Of a DNA stretch of 64,000 nt, positions 7,805 through 64,000 are shown one piece after another (position 1 is the first letter of the stretch; each line of letters starts with the position of its first letter). The stretch spans positions 75,430 to 139,429 of the forward strand of contig JAFGLO010000015.1 in assembly GCA_016927995.1 (NCBI GenBank), in the 5' to 3' direction. This DNA comes from Candidatus Dojkabacteria bacterium (lineage in GTDB: Bacteria > Patescibacteriota > Dojkabacteria > JAFGLO01). Under the pieces are notes generated by a model, which searched no databases, was not told the DNA's origin, and worked only from the letters and a program-made list of their open reading frames with translations. The translations under genes were made by a program, and so were the position numbers.

Positions 7805-7925
7805 TTTATTCAGTGGGGAATCGAACCTGTATCACTTGTTTAGTTTCTTGATCCATGCTCCAAGTATTCGCATTCAGCCTTAGCCTGAGTTAGGTACATC
7901 TCAGGCTCCCCGTAGCGAGTGGGTA
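7805..7925. other. tRNA-like fragment region: inverted T-loop motif GGAATCGAACC and a second copy of the tRNA-Glu 3' end (CCCCGTAGCG..GTATTT)
   Basis: Seen directly in the sequence. Neither strand folds into a canonical cloverleaf by hand. Confidence 0.25.
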
Positions 7926-41100: not shown

Positions 41101-41442
41101 AACATCCTTGGTTTATCGGATGACTGCTTCGATAGGTTTTTCTTATTGAAGAGGAAAGTCCAGACACCATGTGGTCCCGACTTTTCGGGATAGACACTCT
41201 GGAGACAGAGGTAGGTGAAAGCTTACGGAGAAAAGGGCAACAGAAAGTTATACCGCCCCGACTTGTCGGGGTAAGGGTGAAATGGTGGAGTAAGAGCCCA
41301 CCGGTTCCAACAGTAATGTTGGGATGCGTGGTAACCCCTGTCTGGTGCAAGGGCAAAAACGCCCGCATAGATTGATAGTCATACATTCCCGACTTGTCGG
41401 GGAGGACAGAATTTGGCTTATAGGTAGGCCAAGGATGCTTAT
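41101..41442 (+). ncRNA. rnpB: RNase P RNA (bacterial type A)
   Basis: Conserved blocks GAGGAAAGTCC (P4 5' strand), AGGGTGAAATGGTGGAGTAAGAGCCCACC (CR-II) and ACAGAATTTGGCTTA (CR-V). P1 pairing CATCCTTGG (41103-11) with CCAAGGATG (41429-37). The region is visibly GC-rich. Confidence 0.85.
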
Positions 41443-58471: not shown

Positions 58472-59404
58472 CTACACGGGATCTACATAGTAAACGATTT
58501 TACCTTCAAAGGTTTTAACTTTATATCTGCCCGGAGAAACCTCTTTAAGCCAATCAACAGGTACCTTTCCATATCCGCCGGGTAGATCTAAAACGTATGT
58601 TGGAATTGCAATTCCCGAAAGGTTGCCTCGAAGTGATTTGTAGAGCTTAAGCCCGGTTTTTATTGAAACTCTAAAGTGATGAGTACCTTTGGCTTTGTCC
58701 AGATGGTGAAGGTAGTAGGGCTTTATGCCTATCTGAACTAGGTTGGTAAACAGCATAGGAAGTGTCTTAAGAGTATCGTTTACACCCTTAAGTAGTACTG
58801 TCTGGCTTAGCATAAGGATTCCAAAAGATTGAAGTTTTTTTGTAAGCGTAATTGTTTTTTTACTGATTTCTCTTGGATGGTTTACATGAACCACTATAAT
58901 TACCTGTTTTTTCCGCTGAATTTTAGCAAGTTTAGCTATGACGCCTGCTGTTATTAGCTTTGGTGCTGCCACAGGGACGCGTGTATGAATTCGTACAAGC
59001 TTTACTGTGTTTTGTGCATTTAAGGTGGATAGATATGAAAATAAAGCGGGTAGATCAGCTAAAGGGTCGCCACCTGATAAAATTACCTCGTTAACTTCTT
59101 GATGTTTTGACAAATAGGCTTTCACTTTTTTAGGGTCGGTATGCGTGCTTTCTAAATTATGTTTTCTAAAGCAGAATCTACAATGAATCGCGCATTTATC
59201 TGTTGTAAGTAGAAGAATGCGATTTGGGTATCTGTGAATAAGTCCGGGAATAGGGGACTTAAAATTATCTCCGATAGGGTCGGTCAACTCGTATGGTTTA
59301 ATATTGCGCTCGTGCTTGCTTGGTACAGCCATTAGTCTAAGTGGATCATTAGGATTGGTAGGATCAATAAGCGACGAATAGTGTTTAGGGATTAGTGGTT
59401 TCAT
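58472..59404 (-). CDS. KamA-family radical SAM protein (lysine 2,3-aminomutase / EpmB-like)
   Basis: CAIHCRFC CxxxCxxC cluster in a KamA-type context. At 310 aa its length fits EpmB better than KamA. Confidence 0.65.
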   Translation of the reverse strand: MKPLIPKHYSSLIDPTNPNDPLRLMAVPSKHERNIKPYELTDPIGDNFKSPIPGLIHRYPNRILLLTTDKCAIHCRFCFRKHNLESTHTDPKKVKAYLSKHQEVNEVILSGGDPLADLPALFSYLSTLNAQNTVKLVRIHTRVPVAAPKLITAGVIAKLAKIQRKKQVIIVVHVNHPREISKKTITLTKKLQSFGILMLSQTVLLKGVNDTLKTLPMLFTNLVQIGIKPYYLHHLDKAKGTHHFRVSIKTGLKLYKSLRGNLSGIAIPTYVLDLPGGYGKVPVDWLKEVSPGRYKVKTFEGKIVYYVDPV

Positions 59405-59518: not shown

Positions 59519-59606
59519 GGAGAGGTGCCTGAGTGGTCGAAAGGACCGCTTTCGAAAAGCGGCGTCCCGCTTGTCGGGACCGTGGGTTCGAATCCCACCC
59601 TCTCCG
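59519..59606 (+). tRNA. tRNA-Ser (anticodon CGA), class II with long variable arm
   Basis: Acceptor GGAGAGG/CCTCTCC. Anticodon stem CCGCT/AGCGG with loop TTCGAAA. Variable arm CGTCCCGCTTGTCGGGACC. T-arm GTGGG-TTCGAAT-CCCAC. Confidence 0.8.
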
Positions 59607-59716: not shown

Positions 59717-59732
59717 AATCCCACCCTCTCCG
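59717..59732 (+). repeat. Copy of the tRNA-Ser 3' end (AATCCCACCCTCTCCG)
   Basis: Exact 16-nt match to 59591-59606. Confidence 0.8.
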
Positions 59733-59851
59733 AGTGTGTGATTCTTCGCCACGGTATTCTGGTCAAATTCTTCCCGCAAGCCTAGGCTTTCGGGAAAGTT
59801 AGCCCCTTTATAGGTGTGCGGGCTGGGTTCCCTGTCTGCCGACAGGTAGAG

Positions 59852-59867
59852 AATCCCACCCTCTCCG
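59852..59867 (+). repeat. Second copy of the tRNA-Ser 3' end (AATCCCACCCTCTCCG)
   Basis: Exact 16-nt match to 59591-59606. Confidence 0.8.
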
Positions 59868-59983
59868 CAGATGTGCTTTAGTATACAATATTTGACTTAC
59901 CCATATTTGAAAAGGTAATATAGGCCAATATGAAAGAACCTACTATACAAACATAGGTTATACAAAGGGCCAAAAAAAGATTA

Positions 59984-60205
59984 TTGATTGTGGGATTGGT
60001 AATACTTGGCTTGTTTGTAATATATGCAATTATTCCTAAAAGATGCGACGATTATGTGATTTTTACTGGGCATATTACTGGAGGTAGTGATGATTCTGGG
60101 TACATTTTAGTATGTGAATGTATTGGATATAAAATTCAAAGAAAATATGCTCCTACCGATAATTCTGGCACGTGCATTGGGATAATGTATCATAGGAAAG
60201 AATAA
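59984..60205 (+). CDS. Small hypothetical protein with N-terminal transmembrane helix, Cys-containing
   Basis: ORF only. Confidence 0.25.
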   Translation: MIVGLVILGLFVIYAIIPKRCDDYVIFTGHITGGSDDSGYILVCECIGYKIQRKYAPTDNSGTCIGIMYHRKE

Positions 60206-60369
60206 ATGAACGAGGGGCAGGGGAACAAGCTGTGTTGGAAAAGTATTATCCTGATGCCCAAATTACTGCGATTGGCTTGTCTCATGCAGGGTCAGAGTTT
60301 TTAGTGATGTTTGATATTGCCAAATGGATTAAAGAAAATTTTGGGATCGAGGCTACGCCTTTTCCAGAG

Positions 60370-60388
60370 AAAAACTGGTGGAGGTAAT
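60370..60388 (+). repeat. 19-bp direct repeat AAAAACTGGTGGAGGTAAT (copy 1)
   Basis: Exact match to 61909-61927. Confidence 0.75.
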
Positions 60389-60449
60389 ACCATCATCTCA
60401 AAGGTTATTGCTTAATCGGTAATACATTCTAATATAACAAAGCTGATTA

Positions 60450-60611
60450 CTATATTAGAGGGCTTTTGATATTTTCGGTGTCCAGCTGACTTAAGTTCTT
60501 TTTTCTAAAAGTGAAATACTTCTTGAGACCATTCACATAACTTTTTATTGTTCTGGGGCTGTAATCACGAATTTCGAGCTCTCGTATTGTTATATTCAGT
60601 TCTTTTTGCAT
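60450..60611 (-). pseudogene. Tyrosine recombinase (phage-integrase) N-terminal fragment, truncated after 53 codons
   Basis: Hand translation gives MQKELNITIRELEIRDYSPRTIKSYVNGLKKYFTFRKKN.. then a stop. The ..YSPRTIKSY.. pattern is the integrase N-terminal SAM-like domain signature. No downstream frame continues the protein. Confidence 0.5.
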
Positions 60612-60669
60612 AAAAATATGGTTATGATAAAATTAGGACAGTTAATTTAGTGTTATTATAGCAGGGTGG

Positions 60670-60706
60670 ATTCGTATAGTATACGAATTTTCGTATAAAT
60701 TACGAA
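60670..60706. promoter_or_regulatory. Tandem palindromic operator-like site ATTCGTATAgTATACGAAT followed by TTCGTAtaaatTACGAA, 50-90 bp upstream of the DUF1801 gene
   Basis: Two perfect inverted repeats share TTCGTA/TACGAA half-sites. The region is divergent between the integrase remnant and the DUF1801 gene. Confidence 0.45.
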
Positions 60707-60756
60707 AACACTTCGGATAGTAACGAGTTGTACGCAATTCAAAAAAAGAGGTTTAT

Positions 60757-61101
60757 ATGGATGAAAAAATAAAACAATACATTGAAAAACAGAAGCCTAA
60801 AGAAAGACAGCTTATTGAAGAAGCGAGAAAATTAATATATGAAACGATTCCGGAATGTGATGAGTTTTTTCAATGGGGTGTTTTATGTTACTCTAAAGGC
60901 AAAATTTATATTGCTGCAATGAAGGACAGAATCCATGTAGGTTTTTCAATTATTGGTTTATCAAAAGAAGAGGTGAAAATTTTTGAAGGTAGTGGAAAAA
61001 CAGCCAGGCATATAAAAATATTTTCTGTTAATCAATTAGAAGAAAAAAATATTGCAGAATATGTTGAGATGGTTAATAAAAAAGCTGGTATACCTAGTTA
61101 A
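60757..61101 (+). CDS. DUF1801 (YdhG-like) domain protein
   Basis: Size and the conserved DUF1801 core pattern (..IPECDEFFQWGVLCYS.G..IYIAAMKDRIHVGF..). Confidence 0.5.
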   Translation: MDEKIKQYIEKQKPKERQLIEEARKLIYETIPECDEFFQWGVLCYSKGKIYIAAMKDRIHVGFSIIGLSKEEVKIFEGSGKTARHIKIFSVNQLEEKNIAEYVEMVNKKAGIPS

Positions 61102-61132
61102 CTTTTATTACCATTTTTTTTTGAACTGCGTA

Positions 61133-61215
61133 CAACAGCGTGTAGCCGGTTCGGGCGGAGTACCTCTCTCTCCCAAATTGCCTCCGCGAGTACGCTCCGG
61201 CAACTTCGGCTACAC
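61133..61215. repeat. GC-rich structured element: perfect 11-bp inverted repeat GCGTGTAGCCG / CGGCTACACGC enclosing nested GCGGAG/CTCCGC pairing
   Basis: Seen directly. Local GC content is far above the genome background. Confidence 0.5.
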
Positions 61216-61289
61216 GCGGAACGTTATGTGACATTTCGCGCACTGCCAAAAACGAAAAGGTTATAAATTTTGTTTTTTATATAGATACT

Positions 61290-61739
61290 ATGACGAAAAA
61301 AAGACATCAAAATATTCCTGCTTCTTATCTAACATTGTTCAAAGATAACAAAATCTTACTTCTTCGGCGTTGTAATACTGGATATGAAGACGGCAATTAC
61401 TCAATGGTTGCAGGACATGTTGATCCTTGCGAAACTTTTACTCAATGTATTATCAGAGAAGCAAAGGAAGAAGCAGGAATATTACTTAAACCTGAAGATT
61501 TGAAAGTTGTTCATGTAATGCACAGAAACTCTGGTACTGCTGAAAATAATGAAAGAGTTGATGTCTTTTTTATTGCTGAAAAATGGGGTGGTGAGATAGT
61601 AAACAAGGAACCTCACAAGTGCGATGATTTGTATTGGTTTGACTTGGATAGTATCCCAGAAAATGTCATCCCATATATCAAGCAAGCTATTGAAGGAATA
61701 AAAAATAAAATTTATTATAGTGAACATGGATGGCAGTGA
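61290..61739 (+). CDS. NUDIX hydrolase
   Basis: Nudix box GHVDPCETFTQCIIREAKEEAGI (G-x5-E-x7-REuxEExGu). Confidence 0.8.
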   Translation: MTKKRHQNIPASYLTLFKDNKILLLRRCNTGYEDGNYSMVAGHVDPCETFTQCIIREAKEEAGILLKPEDLKVVHVMHRNSGTAENNERVDVFFIAEKWGGEIVNKEPHKCDDLYWFDLDSIPENVIPYIKQAIEGIKNKIYYSEHGWQ

Positions 61740-61908
61740 GCGAAACGCTAAAGCCATGCTGCGCTCTCGTTCCGCTACGCTCCACTCGGGTCACATAACA
61801 CGGGATAAAAGGTTTGGCACTCGGCTCGTGTCTCACCAAAATTTTGCTCCACTCCGTTCCGCAAAACTTTGTATAGTCGCGGCACATTGTGGCGAAATTC
61901 CGTTCATT

Positions 61909-61927
61909 AAAAACTGGTGGAGGTAAT
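61909..61927 (+). repeat. 19-bp direct repeat AAAAACTGGTGGAGGTAAT (copy 2)
   Basis: Exact match to 60370-60388. Confidence 0.75.
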
Positions 61928-62122
61928 CAATGTGTTATAAGTCCATCTTAATGGCTGAGTTATCATACCCATCTTTAGTAGGCAAAACAATTAACGTTTC
62001 TGATCCTCGATATTAGGATATAACTACAGAGGTTCCTGTCTAATTGTGTTTGTATCTTATCGTTACTTTTTACTTTTACGTAATTTCTGCTATTATTTGT
62101 ATATAATTAGCTAACGTAATCC

Positions 62123-62590: not shown

Positions 62591-62624
62591 ATCGGTTCGC
62601 GTATAATCTATTAAGATAAGTTTT
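62591..62624 (+). repeat. 34-bp direct repeat ATCGGTTCGCGTATAATCTATTAAGATAAGTTTT (copy 1; contains TATAAT)
   Basis: Exact match to 63193-63226. Confidence 0.8.
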
Positions 62625-63096
62625 GTATTTTATCTTTATAAGAATTCTATTCAAGAGGAGAAAGGTTAAAAGATTTCTCATAATTTTCTTGTCAATGGTT
62701 ACACTTATTTCCATTTTGGTGGGAGTTATTTATTTCTTTTCATTTTGGTCGTGTGGTATGGATGATATGCAGAGGATATATTCTTGGCAGAAGTTTATTA
62801 TCCCAAGTGTATTAAGAAATGCACCTGAAAGCGAAACTATTAGTTGTTCTTGTGGTTATTATCCGAGTTGTGGAATTTTTGTTAAACATAATGAAACAAC
62901 AGAAAAAAATTTGGCTGATCTTATGCAGGATAATATCGTTTATTTTGAAAGTAATGGATACTATCTCACGATAGAGAGTTACTCTGGTGATGAACTTTAT
63001 TGTAAGGAAGGTTCATCAAAACTTGATTGTTTTCAGATGGTCAGTTATGAAAAGGATAATGCGACAATCCTAGCCGTTACATTTTATGACAGGTAG
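62623..63096 (+). CDS. Hypothetical membrane-anchored, Cys-containing protein
   Basis: N-terminal transmembrane helix. Begins right after the repeat. The C-terminal domain has a truncated paralog 600 bp downstream. Confidence 0.4.
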   Translation: MYFIFIRILFKRRKVKRFLIIFLSMVTLISILVGVIYFFSFWSCGMDDMQRIYSWQKFIIPSVLRNAPESETISCSCGYYPSCGIFVKHNETTEKNLADLMQDNIVYFESNGYYLTIESYSGDELYCKEGSSKLDCFQMVSYEKDNATILAVTFYDR

Positions 63097-63192: not shown

Positions 63193-63226
63193 ATCGGTTC
63201 GCGTATAATCTATTAAGATAAGTTTT
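63193..63226 (+). repeat. 34-bp direct repeat (copy 2)
   Basis: Exact match to 62591-62624. Confidence 0.8.
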
Positions 63227-63231
63227 AATAA

Positions 63232-63381
63232 CAAAGTTTGGAAATTATAGTCTCTCCTGGAGAAATAGCCTATTGCTATCATGGAAGTGAATATTCGGAT
63301 AATGGTGATCGTAATGATTGTTTCAAGGTTGAGCATCTAGGATCTGATCGTTTAATTGTAACATTTTACAACAGGTGGTAG
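63232..63381 (+). pseudogene. Truncated paralog of the C-terminal domain of the 62623..63096 protein (no ATG start)
   Basis: Frame-1 translation ..SPGEIAYCYHGSEYSDNGDRNDCFKVEHLGSDRLIVTFYNRW* aligns with ..YSGDELYCKEGSSKLDCFQMVSYEKDNATILAVTFYDR*. Confidence 0.45.
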
Positions 63382-63812: not shown

Positions 63813-64000
63813 GATGAAGTTTTCAATCAAAACCACGGACATCGCAAAATACATGGCAAATATCGGGAGACTGGTTGATCCTAAACCGTCCATACCTGTT
63901 TTGGGGAATATCCTTATAAATGCATCAAAAGATGGAGTAATGTTTACTGCTTCAAATCTTGAACTTAGCATGCAGGTTACCCTAAAGGCCGATGTATCCG
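63813..64000 (+). CDS. dnaN: DNA polymerase III beta subunit (sliding clamp), N-terminal fragment (3' partial)
   Basis: MKFSIKTTDIAKYMANIGRLVDPKPSIPVLGNILINASKDGVMFTASNLELSM matches the DnaN N-terminal domain consensus (..P.LGN.L......L.L.A.DLE...). Confidence 0.75.

Follow-up and report, generated by a model that had tools for sequence, protein, structure and literature searches.

A probable decayed integron-like gene-capture platform, bracketed by a 19-bp direct repeat, in a Candidatus Dojkabacteria genome

Within the window, by which we mean the whole 64,000-nt stretch of DNA analysed here, from the genome of an uncultivated Candidatus Dojkabacteria (CPR) bacterium, two copies of a 19-bp sequence enclose a block of about 1.5 kb. 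The first-pass annotation had listed in this block an integrase fragment, palindromes, a DUF1801 gene, a NUDIX gene and two GC-rich inverted-repeat elements, and sequence reading together with Pfam bore out these contents. Both GC-rich elements are present as described, but covariance models (R1 and R2, below) and covariation identify them as putative attC sites. The features of the locus, in window coordinates, are as follows.

59519..59606, plus strand: tRNA-Ser(CGA) (ARAGORN, Rfam); its 3' end faces the integrase 3' end, about 840 bp off
59717-59732 and 59852-59867, plus strand: two extra copies of the tRNA-Ser 3' end (last 16-17 nt, AATCCCACCCTCTCCG; repeat search, blastn)
60370..60388, plus strand: 19-mer copy 1, 62 nt past the integrase stop codon, with no cassette or attC feature adjoining
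60450..60611, minus strand: integrase pseudogene (Pfam Phage_int_SAM_4) with an in-frame internal deletion
60666..60729 (approximate), plus strand: attI-like site with three TAT(A/C)CGAA-type motifs, ending at the predicted crossover G|TT, whose G is 60727
60728..61223, plus strand: predicted cassette 1, the DUF1801 ORF (60757-61101) plus attC1
61126-61231, plus strand: attC1 (E1), a covariance-model match; R'' AAC at 61134-36, 12-bp L stem from 61138, R' GTT at 61223-25
61224..61886, plus strand: predicted cassette 2, the NUDIX ORF (61290-61739) plus a decayed attC2
61789-61894, plus strand: attC2 (E2); R'' GTCACATAAC at 61790-99; ATTGTGG at the R' position (61886-92), with GTT mutated to ATT
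61887..62016, plus strand: stump of a predicted third cassette, with a decayed 5' inverted-repeat leader (61887-61908), 19-mer copy 2, an ATG at 61930 and a 28-codon ORF
61909..61927, plus strand: 19-mer copy 2, an A-run plus GGAGG, 22 nt into the third cassette

The integrase pseudogene retains 53 codons only. Its N-terminal 49 codons (...LDTENIK) are joined to the final codons (NIKSPLI and stop) of a 270-aa IntI-like recombinase, and its sequence shares 55-62% identity with the N-terminal parts of intact 270-aa integrases from Patescibacteria. It belongs to this large family, which numbers more than 5,000 integrases. The intact proteins end in ...KNIKSPL or ...KNIKSPF, and because the C-terminal NIKSPL-stop of the remnant matches this ending, the gene has suffered an internal deletion; AAAATAT.AA.AG DNA repeats lie at both deletion positions. 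A word-index homology search with the 53-aa remnant returned nothing. We also considered a pseudogene that runs further left through copy 1 of the 19-mer ('WYYL' against 'FYYL' in frame), but tblastn gave no support and the NIKSPL-stop match ends the gene at 60450. The closest solved relative of the 270-aa family is VchIntIA, the Vibrio integron integrase (PDB 2A3V, 162 bits), with XerA and XerD scoring lower. The IntI-specific domain is absent from the family, which has 18 residues against 61 in IntI and a 43-residue gap against 2A3V, and intact relatives reach 213-223 bits with TIGR02249, below its cutoff of 265.

Upstream of the integrase start, a 60-70-bp block is kept in six independent loci (the window, L086, L087, L088, L089 and L090), with the common sequence AAC|TC.TT..TAT.CGAA...TTGTAT.TTATGCGAA. 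Conservation ends exactly at AAC|T, beyond which the loci diverge, each continuing into a cassette-type 5' end of its own. The palindromes of the window lie in this block, and its conservation at six loci points to an attI-like site of the integrase family in place of the tandem palindromic operator proposed earlier; lying next to the integrase gene and ending at G|TT, the block would correspond to the attI of an integron, the site at which cassettes enter. As an alternative, the palindromes were compared with attC as a decayed site ('attC0'). The similarity was weak (p about 0.02; 4 bits), and conservation at other integrase loci favours attI. No attC remnant was found left of the integrase. 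In a scan for a cassette promoter (Pc), a TTTGCA-17-TAAAAT match at 60605-60633 faces the cassettes; promoter-like sites in the scan were no more numerous than in shuffles.

The stem pattern of E1 recurs at 72 metagenome loci, about 50 of which are 77-81-nt near-copies flanked by variable ..YAAC-A ... GGAAC-GTTR.. sequence, and same-strand arrays of such sites stand behind small ORFs. Compensatory changes were seen in 23 of the 25 stem pairs, with 95% of cells paired; slid controls pair at 35-47%, and none of 500 shuffles matches the observed covariation. AAC and GTT are near-invariant in the family alignment, and canonical extrahelical bases are absent from the family. As judged with our own models R1 and R2, the elements combine R''/R' boxes, a hairpin and a structure kept while the sequence varies, as would be expected of attC sites. 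R1 gives attC1 111 bits, and the site is about 94% identical to the family core; a search for it in plasmids gave no match. The decayed attC2 scores 15 bits with R1 (E 0.0017 in 4.4 kb) and 33 bits with the broader R2 (E 3e-6), and it aligns with lower-GC subfamily members (L017, L081 and L054). GC-rich attCs in low-GC hosts are the rule for this family.

The units between these sites appear to follow the logic of integron cassettes, each starting after G|TT and having a 5' end that would pair with its own R''. In 9/9 adjacent pairs (the window and 8 loci), the stretch of ~20 nt that follows G|TT is the reverse complement of the 5' flank of the next attC; a mismatch at position 11 is conserved in the complementary ends, and cassette 1 of the window has the same mismatch. 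The 5' end of cassette 1, GTTGTACGCAATTCAAAAAAA, is the reverse complement of 61116-61136, and that of cassette 2, GTTATGTGAC..., is complementary to its own R''. When circularised, cassette 1 has a folding energy of -39 to -45 kcal/mol, with z between -7 and -10, a gain of about 15-20 kcal/mol from circularisation. Crossover is predicted not at the 19-mers but at G|TT, at 60727/8, 61223/4 and, in mutated form, 61886/7. An end of cassette 2 at GTTCATT (61902) was also considered; the subfamily alignment places it at the mutated ATTGTGG, 61886. For the third cassette, the covariance-model scan detected no partner R'' or attC downstream.

We conclude, with a probability of roughly 0.8, that the 1.5-kb block is a decayed chromosomal integron-like gene-capture platform of a type common in Patescibacteria (CPR). 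Sequence comparison shows the identity of the cassettes and their attC sites, the conservation of attI, the integrase family and the integrase deletion. According to this model, a minus-strand tyrosine recombinase gene would have diverged from its own attI site, and circular cassettes, each an ORF with a hairpin-forming attC, would have entered at the G|TT of attI, giving the present head-to-tail order of DUF1801 with attC1, NUDIX with attC2 and a third cassette of which the first ~130 nt are present. The platform would now be dead through deletion of recombinase codons ~50-265 between two short 'NIK'-encoding repeats, and the loss of stem pairs and GTT from attC2 would be a second inactivating change. 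The DUF1801 and NUDIX genes are captured cassette genes of this dead platform. The earlier description of the block as a small decayed site-specific integrative cassette was right in seeing mobile DNA around a tyrosine-recombinase remnant and captured genes, but not in the mechanism, which would involve integron-type units with G|TT boundaries.

Tyrosine recombinases also occur beside attC sites of this family at L068 and L029. We considered them as platform integrases and rejected them, as they proved to be companions of an IS91 Y2 transposase. Together with the Xer-like length of the recombinase, these pairings would suit an origin of the sites as Xer/dif-type modules or IS91-type cargo, with a recombinase remnant derived from an insertion sequence. 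We give this origin almost no credence: the remnant falls in the 270-aa family, at all six loci compared the upstream attI stops at G|TT and no Y2 transposase lies near, the sites are long covarying hairpins and not 28-bp dif-like sites, and array sites all share one orientation, in contrast to alternating pdif modules.

Intact platforms of the same kind as the proposed gene-capture platform exist elsewhere (L088-L090). L090 carries a 270-aa integrase, attI, two same-strand attCs of 63 bits each and a weakly scoring third (15 bits, E 0.31); its first adjacent pair fits the cassette logic and its second fails, where an attC may have been overlooked. A single attC was found at L088 and a weak one at L089. 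Platforms often adjoin tRNA 3' ends: in two related ones the distance between a tRNA and the integrase 3' end is 24-50 nt (tRNA-Ser(GGA) at L089, tRNA-Gly at L086). The two duplicated tRNA-Ser ends in the window look like scars of earlier integrations at the tRNA.

The 19-mer itself, AAAAACTGGTGGAGGTAAT, is exact at 60370-60388 and 61909-61927 and absent elsewhere in the window, even when 3 mismatches are allowed. A further ~8 bp of similarity on the left, reported earlier, did not hold up, since the 40- and 120-nt left flanks align locally no better than shuffles; the same is true of the 200-nt right flanks. The repeat is therefore exactly 19 bp long with sharp edges. Its copies bracket the whole platform: 62 nt separate copy 1 from the integrase stop, and copy 2 lies 22 nt beyond the last crossover. 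Copy 2 is the ribosome-binding leader of the third cassette, as alignment with attC-family loci shows a shared layout after R' (for example L017, GTTATCGGAAATTTCAAAATTGGAGGATTTTATATG). An independent assembly at k=31 crosses the junction at copy 1: its Logan contig L001 equals window 59838-61161 at 100% identity. This independent support covers the copy 1 junction and not that of copy 2.

A search for further copies, proposed with the original observation, yielded none in a related context. Viral contigs hold 8 matches to the 19-mer, all inside unrelated phage genes, where it codes KTGGGN in three unrelated gene families, and none of the fetched loci contains a near match. We found no empty site, circular junction or second example, and contigs matching the locus came from one sample only. 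Exact protein matches to DUF1801, a 71-aa ORF and a radical-SAM gene (58472-59404; KamA-like, lysine 2,3-aminomutase family) were confined to that sample, and exact-protein look-ups of NUDIX, DUF3795 and a 157-aa ORF hit zero contigs. A scan of genome-collection contigs with the KamA-like gene matched only a 39% relative from another phylum.

The first-pass annotation had taken the repeats as attL (copy 1) and attR (copy 2) of an integrative element inserted into, and replacing, the 3' end of a gene ending in KNWWR. An exact, sharp-edged repeat around a tyrosine-recombinase gene that ends 62 nt from copy 1 would suit such an element, as would a length of 19 bp, which is usual for att cores. 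Both copies do end an open frame (60232-60387, 51 aa; 61720-61926, 68 aa), but neither frame behaves like a gene. The shared KNWWR and stop merely reflect 19 identical bases read in an identical frame and are not independent evidence. The left frame has no Pfam match and no homologue in a word-index search, and the gene caller left it uncalled on the independent Logan contig; the right frame spans the NUDIX 3' end and the non-coding attC2. These findings speak against insertion into a coding 3' end, and joining the outer flanks as a mock 'empty site' produces no longer ORF. Furthermore, the sequence left of copy 2 is a cassette 5' leader homologous to family members, so the supposed host side of attR is also integron DNA, and no flanking direct repeat was seen at other platforms of the family. 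An element of this kind is quite improbable; the 19-mer pair does not represent a gene 3' end that was replaced, and the KNWWR gene-end account should be dropped.

A transposon or insertion sequence with a target-site duplication was likewise rejected: the block has no transposase ORF, its two inner edges carry no terminal inverted repeat, and the repeat, at 19 bp, exceeds the 2-14 bp usual for such duplications. An assembly artefact, in which the block was spliced in through the shared 19-mer or GC-rich attC DNA was drawn from another organism, is very improbable. It could draw on the fact that 19 equals k-1 for the smallest k (20) of IDBA-UD, on breaks of same-sample Logan contigs at 59604, 59838 and 61161 (at the tRNA-end repeat and inside attC1), and on the copy 2 junction, for which independent support is lacking. 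Against this, L001 begins in the AT-rich left flank, passes copy 1, the integrase remnant, attI and DUF1801 without a break and reaches into attC1, GC-rich attCs are usual for the family in low-GC hosts, and a loop traversal giving two junctions would be an unusual assembler error.

The platform could also be real and the 19-mer pair devoid of mechanistic meaning, two leader-like sequences of an AT-rich island, both A-rich and with GGAGG, having come to match by chance. Exact direct repeats of at least 19 nt arose in 5 of 100 first-order Markov simulations of the window, the presence of the 19-mer in three phage gene families suggests that the word is not unusual, and the finding emerged from a scan of many windows. 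Yet requiring a spacing below 2 kb lowers the chance expectation to ~0.3% per window, and both copies lie fairly close to the ends of the platform. Across the 60 kb of core genes there is no repeat of at least 19 nt; the only other one in the window is a 34-nt pair (62591/63193) within the same 4-kb variable region. A chance origin at ~0.3% per window is unlikely, yet not negligible across a scan of many windows, and overall we regard coincidence as improbable. To our knowledge, direct repeats are not produced by integron recombination. Tentatively, and at rather less than even odds, we infer that the sharp-edged repeat is a junction scar, left when the platform block was put in place or rearranged; a circular intermediate that recombined with the chromosome in one crossover, at 19 bases identical in both, could have left such a scar.

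The definition of an integron rests on an integrase with a special extra domain, and descriptions of integrons come mainly from Proteobacteria, with a few other phyla represented. The CPR platforms look complete, with an integrase, attI, ordered cassettes and covarying attC hairpins, and their integrase is nearest to IntI while lacking the IntI domain. It is possible, though the balance tips against it, that Patescibacteria own an integron class with a 270-aa IntI-like recombinase devoid of the IntI-specific domain, a conserved attI in which TAT(G/A)CGAA motifs recur, and attC sites free of extrahelical bases, and that the 19-bp repeat is a first hint that a whole platform can move or be captured as one unit. 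If so, standard tools would report CPR platforms merely as CALINs, or miss them. If the platforms are active, genes can be captured through folded single-stranded attC by a recombinase without the IntI-specific domain. Tiny as their genomes are, CPR bacteria would then possess a system devoted to acquiring genes, and surveys that count integrons by the IntI domain would arrive at too low a number.

Among known systems, the platform most resembles the sedentary chromosomal integrons, such as the Vibrio cholerae superintegron with its VCR attC sites. As there, the integrase diverges from attI, same-orientation cassettes combine an ORF with an imperfect-palindrome attC whose family is highly conserved within arrays, crossover falls on G|TT in a GTTRRRY-like box with an inverse RYYYAAC-like box, the first cassette bases are complementary to the cassette's own attC, and the integrase is nearest to VchIntIA. 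In contrast to VchIntIA, whose IntI-specific domain contacts the extrahelical bases, the platform integrases are 270 aa long and lack this domain of ~43 residues. Unlike the Vibrio attC, the L stem is a perfect 12-bp helix with no extrahelical bases, and asymmetry is due to an internal loop with 1 nt on one side and 5 nt (GGAAC) on the other. Complementarity of the ends also reaches ~20-25 nt past the 7-bp boxes, the host phylum is Patescibacteria, and in the window the integrase is destroyed.

Archaeal XerA and NCBIfam NF040815 ('site-specific tyrosine recombinase/integron integrase') are similar in length, and the family scores 217-221 bits against the NF040815 cutoff of 220. XerA acts at dif in chromosome resolution, whereas the platform integrases adjoin attI and cassette arrays and score higher against VchIntIA than against XerA structures. 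The arrangement also recalls tRNA-targeting islands with attL and attR, in that the recombinase 3' end faces a tRNA 3' end, tRNA ends are duplicated and a repeat brackets the whole; it differs from them in that the 19-mer is unrelated to the tRNA, island-type cargo is absent and the inner units are cassettes.

Since the 270-aa family lacks the IntI-specific domain, the platform is not an integron by the usual definition. The integron integrase IntI is a tyrosine recombinase with an additional domain around patch III, according to Messier & Roy 2001 as cited in PMC9668308. By this measure the window does not hold a complete integron, as its integrase is a 53-codon remnant with relatives below the TIGR02249 cutoff. 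CALINs are at least two clustered attC sites with no integron-integrase nearby and have been proposed to be degraded integrons (IntegronFinder, PMC9024848). attC1 (111 bits) and attC2 (33 bits), on the same strand about 660 nt apart with no functional integrase, fit that description when scored with our own covariance model in place of that of IntegronFinder. The block thus resembles a CALIN in having at least two same-orientation attC sites and no functional integrase, and differs from one in that an integrase remnant and attI remain.

The exact 19-mer AAAAACTGGTGGAGGTAAT occurs twice, at 60370-60388 and 61909-61927, and the window holds no third copy even with three mismatches. As the first-pass annotation had stated, each copy closes an open frame (ORF1, 60232-60387, and ORF2, 61720-61926), while the further similarity reported to the left of the copies was absent. 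In local alignments the flanks do no better than shuffled sequence, so the repeat stops sharply at exactly 19 bp. The KNWWR* ending common to both frames is merely identical DNA read in an identical frame. The interpretation of the pair as att sites, left by an element that entered the 3' end of a gene and supplied a replacement end, is improbable: ORF1 has no domain or homologue, ORF2 lies within the 3' end of the NUDIX gene and the element behind it, and joining the outer flanks created no gene. Chance is an unlikely source of the pair, at a low but non-negligible probability. Of 100 Markov simulations run on the window, 5 held an exact repeat of at least 19 nt; the figure falls to about 0.3% per window once spacing is constrained. 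An att pair of 19 bp in a shared gene end is thus a description that holds only in part, and the interest lies in what the bracketed block proved to be.

The two GC-rich inverted-repeat elements noted earlier are present, and their scores, covariation and cassette logic identify them as attC sites (attC1 behind DUF1801, attC2 behind NUDIX). A 21-nt inverted repeat (GTTGTACGCAATTCAAAAAAA / TTTTTTTGAACTGCGTACAAC) flanks the DUF1801 gene, and the stretch ahead of attC2 contains the reverse complement of what follows attC1 (GTTATGTGAC...). Scanning metagenome contigs with the attC1 stem pattern (GCGTGTAGCCG-N35-65-CGGCTACACGC) returned 72 loci, about 50 of them with near-identical 77-81-nt elements (left flank variable, ..YAAC-A; right flank GGAAC-GTTR..). 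A narrow covariance model built from 34 such elements gave attC1 111 bits and revealed same-strand attC arrays behind small ORFs in L025, L054, L074, L044 and other loci. In 9 of 9 adjacent pairs (eight loci and the window), the ~20 nt after G|TT are the reverse complement of the next site's 5' flank, with a conserved mismatch at position 11 of the complementary ends that is also seen in window cassette 1. Circularisable integron cassettes follow just this logic. An alignment of 37 distinct sites, fitted to the model and so somewhat in the structure's favour, has compensatory changes in 23 of 25 stem pairs and pairing in 95% of cells; none of 500 shuffles reached this level, and slid controls were 35-47% paired. 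The attC L stem is a perfect 12-bp helix lacking extrahelical bases, its asymmetry arising from a 1-nt versus a 5-nt loop.

With the narrow model attC2 reached 15 bits; a broader model gave it 33 bits (E 3e-6), and it aligns to L017, L081 and L054. Its R' position reads ATTGTGG (61886-92) where GTT... is expected, and several stem pairs are broken; on these alignments it is a decayed attC of a lower-GC subfamily. A ~44-nt GC-rich insert (CGCTAAAGCCATGCTGCGCTCTCGTTCCGCTACGCTCCACTCGG, 61746-61789) splits its outer stem; the insert is about 75% conserved in one other family member (L054, reverse complement, about 430-470), and a portion of the insert is similar to the inner hairpin of this attC family.

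What had been annotated as an operator is an attI-like site. Six independent loci (the window and L086, L087, L088, L089 and L090) share AAC|TC.TT..TAT.CGAA...TTGTAT.TTATGCGAA upstream of the integrase start. Because conservation ends exactly at AAC, which is G|TT on the other strand (60727|60728 in the window), and every locus differs beyond it in a sequence of the cassette-start type GTTAxxxxxAATT..., the block looks like an attI site with differing first cassettes. Three of these loci encode intact 270-aa IntI-like integrases of Patescibacteria, with the conserved attI within the upstream 130 nt and divergent cassette arrays:

L088, 8001-8819: intact integrase
L089, 1982-2794: intact integrase
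L090, 8001-8813: intact integrase

L090 is a complete example, with two well-scoring same-strand attCs (63 bits each) and, behind the first cassette gene, a weak third (15 bits, E 0.31). Of its adjacent pairs, the first obeys cassette logic and the second does not; a further attC may have escaped detection there. L088 has one attC and L089 one weak attC. A CYTH-domain gene is the first cassette in both L089 and L090; tRNA-Ser(GGA) lies 24 nt from the L089 integrase stop, and tRNA-Gly ~50 nt from a truncated integrase in L086. Sequence right after the attI crossover recurs past a downstream attC in L089 (344-509 / 1698-1862, 166 nt, 97-100%) and L088 (5747-5776 / 7862-7891, 30 nt, 90%), as would be expected if a cassette had been copied back to the array's first position. 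Upstream of the DUF3795 gene, window 62073-62092 (CTTTTACGTAATTTCTGC) is similar to the reverse complement of the second attI motif (TTCGTATAAATTACGAAAA); either chance or a stray site bound by the integrase could explain this.

The window's own integrase is reduced to a short frame:

60450-60611, minus strand: integrase remnant, 53-codon ORF, 55-62% identical to family N-termini

At E <= 1e-10 this very large family counts 5,551 proteins. Its intact members have a length of 270 aa and, where named, belong to Patescibacteria, Parcubacteria, Portnoybacteria, Moranbacteria and Shapirobacteria. Intact C-termini read ...KNIKSPL* or KNIKSPF*, the remnant's ...LDTENIKSPLI*, and in intact genes the DNA motif AAAATAT.AA.AG is found twice, at codons ~46-50 and at the 3' end. 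The NIKSPL* match and the motif at both positions thus indicate an in-frame deletion of codons ~50-265 that kept the native stop. A second remnant, from a different genome (L012, 150-308, adjoining dnaJ), is 59% identical and has the same deletion, N-terminal ..ENIK joined to C-terminal NIKSP(L/F)*. The deletion seems to have formed between the short repeats; the shared form could reflect a recurrent hotspot or a selected mini-protein with only the N-terminal DNA-binding helix bundle.

Against solved structures, the intact family integrase P0074 matched the Vibrio integron integrase VchIntIA (2A3V) best, at 162 bits, versus 148 and 142 bits for archaeal XerA and 85 bits for XerD. Family integrases score 213-223 bits on TIGR02249, below its cutoff of 265. 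The VchIntIA alignment skips chain residues 183-243, the IntI-specific domain that defines IntI in the literature (PMC9668308). Its absence would tie in with an attC L stem devoid of extrahelical bases.

The window comes from a Candidatus Dojkabacteria (CPR/Patescibacteria) MAG (window EF-Tu, GenBank MBN1374440.1; SerRS, MBN1374481.1; 158.8-kb contig), a species found in one sample only, SRR13394437. The block lies within a 4-kb variable stretch between tRNA-Ser(CGA) and the start of dnaN. Features mapped in the window include:

41108-41436: bacterial class A RNase P RNA, 155 bits
59519-59606: tRNA-Ser(CGA)
59591-59606, 59717-59732, 59852-59867: tRNA-Ser(CGA) 3'-end copies, 16-17 nt (AATCCCACCCTCTCCG), spaced 126 and 135 nt
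62623-63096, 63238-63381: small paralogous ORFs, similar C-termini (..AVTFYDR* and ..IVTFYNRW*)
63816-64000: dnaN start, at the right window edge

Because cumulative GC skew climbs monotonically over the whole window and dnaN stands at its right edge, the platform is close to the probable replication origin. The triple tRNA ends look like serial att scars of elements once integrated there, with hardly anything remaining between them. Just upstream of dnaN, the two small ORFs are preceded by a perfect direct repeat of 34 nt with TATAAT (62591-62624, 63193-63226); this local duplication has nothing to do with the cassettes. An independent k=31 Logan assembly of SRR13394437 is 100% identical to 59838-61161, which shows that the copy 1 junction is real, as is the join between AT-rich DNA and the first GC-rich element. 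An assembly artefact is a very unlikely explanation for the 19-mer arrangement.

Copy 2 starts 22 nt past the mutated attC2 crossover. Since family cassettes carry a 5' inverted-repeat leader homologous to these 22 nt, and copy 2 provides an A-run and GGAGG ahead of the ATG at 61930, as in L017, copy 2 looks like the leader of a third cassette that survives only as a stump; no attC or matching R'' was found downstream of it. Copy 1 is located 62 nt beyond the integrase stop codon, with no attC remnant in the surrounding sequence, and from these positions the 19-mers bracket the entire platform. Direct repeats are not a product of integron recombination, and a flanking bracket sought in three other platforms was absent. 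If not due to chance, the repeat may, at a tentative 35-40%, be a junction scar left when the block was placed or rearranged, for example by a single crossover at the 19 identical bases with a circular intermediate.

Other recombinases occur around this attC family. Two further Xer/IntI-like integrases (L022 12267-13023; L066 260-1135, same in L053) also have no IntI domain, are co-oriented with the array and have the first cassette G|TT boundary 75-80 bp past the stop codon, a different platform geometry on the same attC family. IS91-family elements (Y2_Tnp + Zn_Tnp_IS91 transposase, tyrosine recombinase upstream; L068 308-2360, L029 835-2790) lie within ~100 nt of family attC sites in either orientation and may be attC-targeting insertion sequences.

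Full-text searches of one literature collection for integrons in Patescibacteria/CPR found no description of such platforms, which is weak evidence of absence. In IntegronFinder's operational terms the locus would be a CALIN (as defined in PMC9024848); in functional terms its sequence features make it a degraded integron. Compared with integrons, it shows attI, attC and cassette logic but not the IntI domain: VchIntIA has 61 residues at chain 183-243, where the Patescibacteria integrase P0074 has 18.
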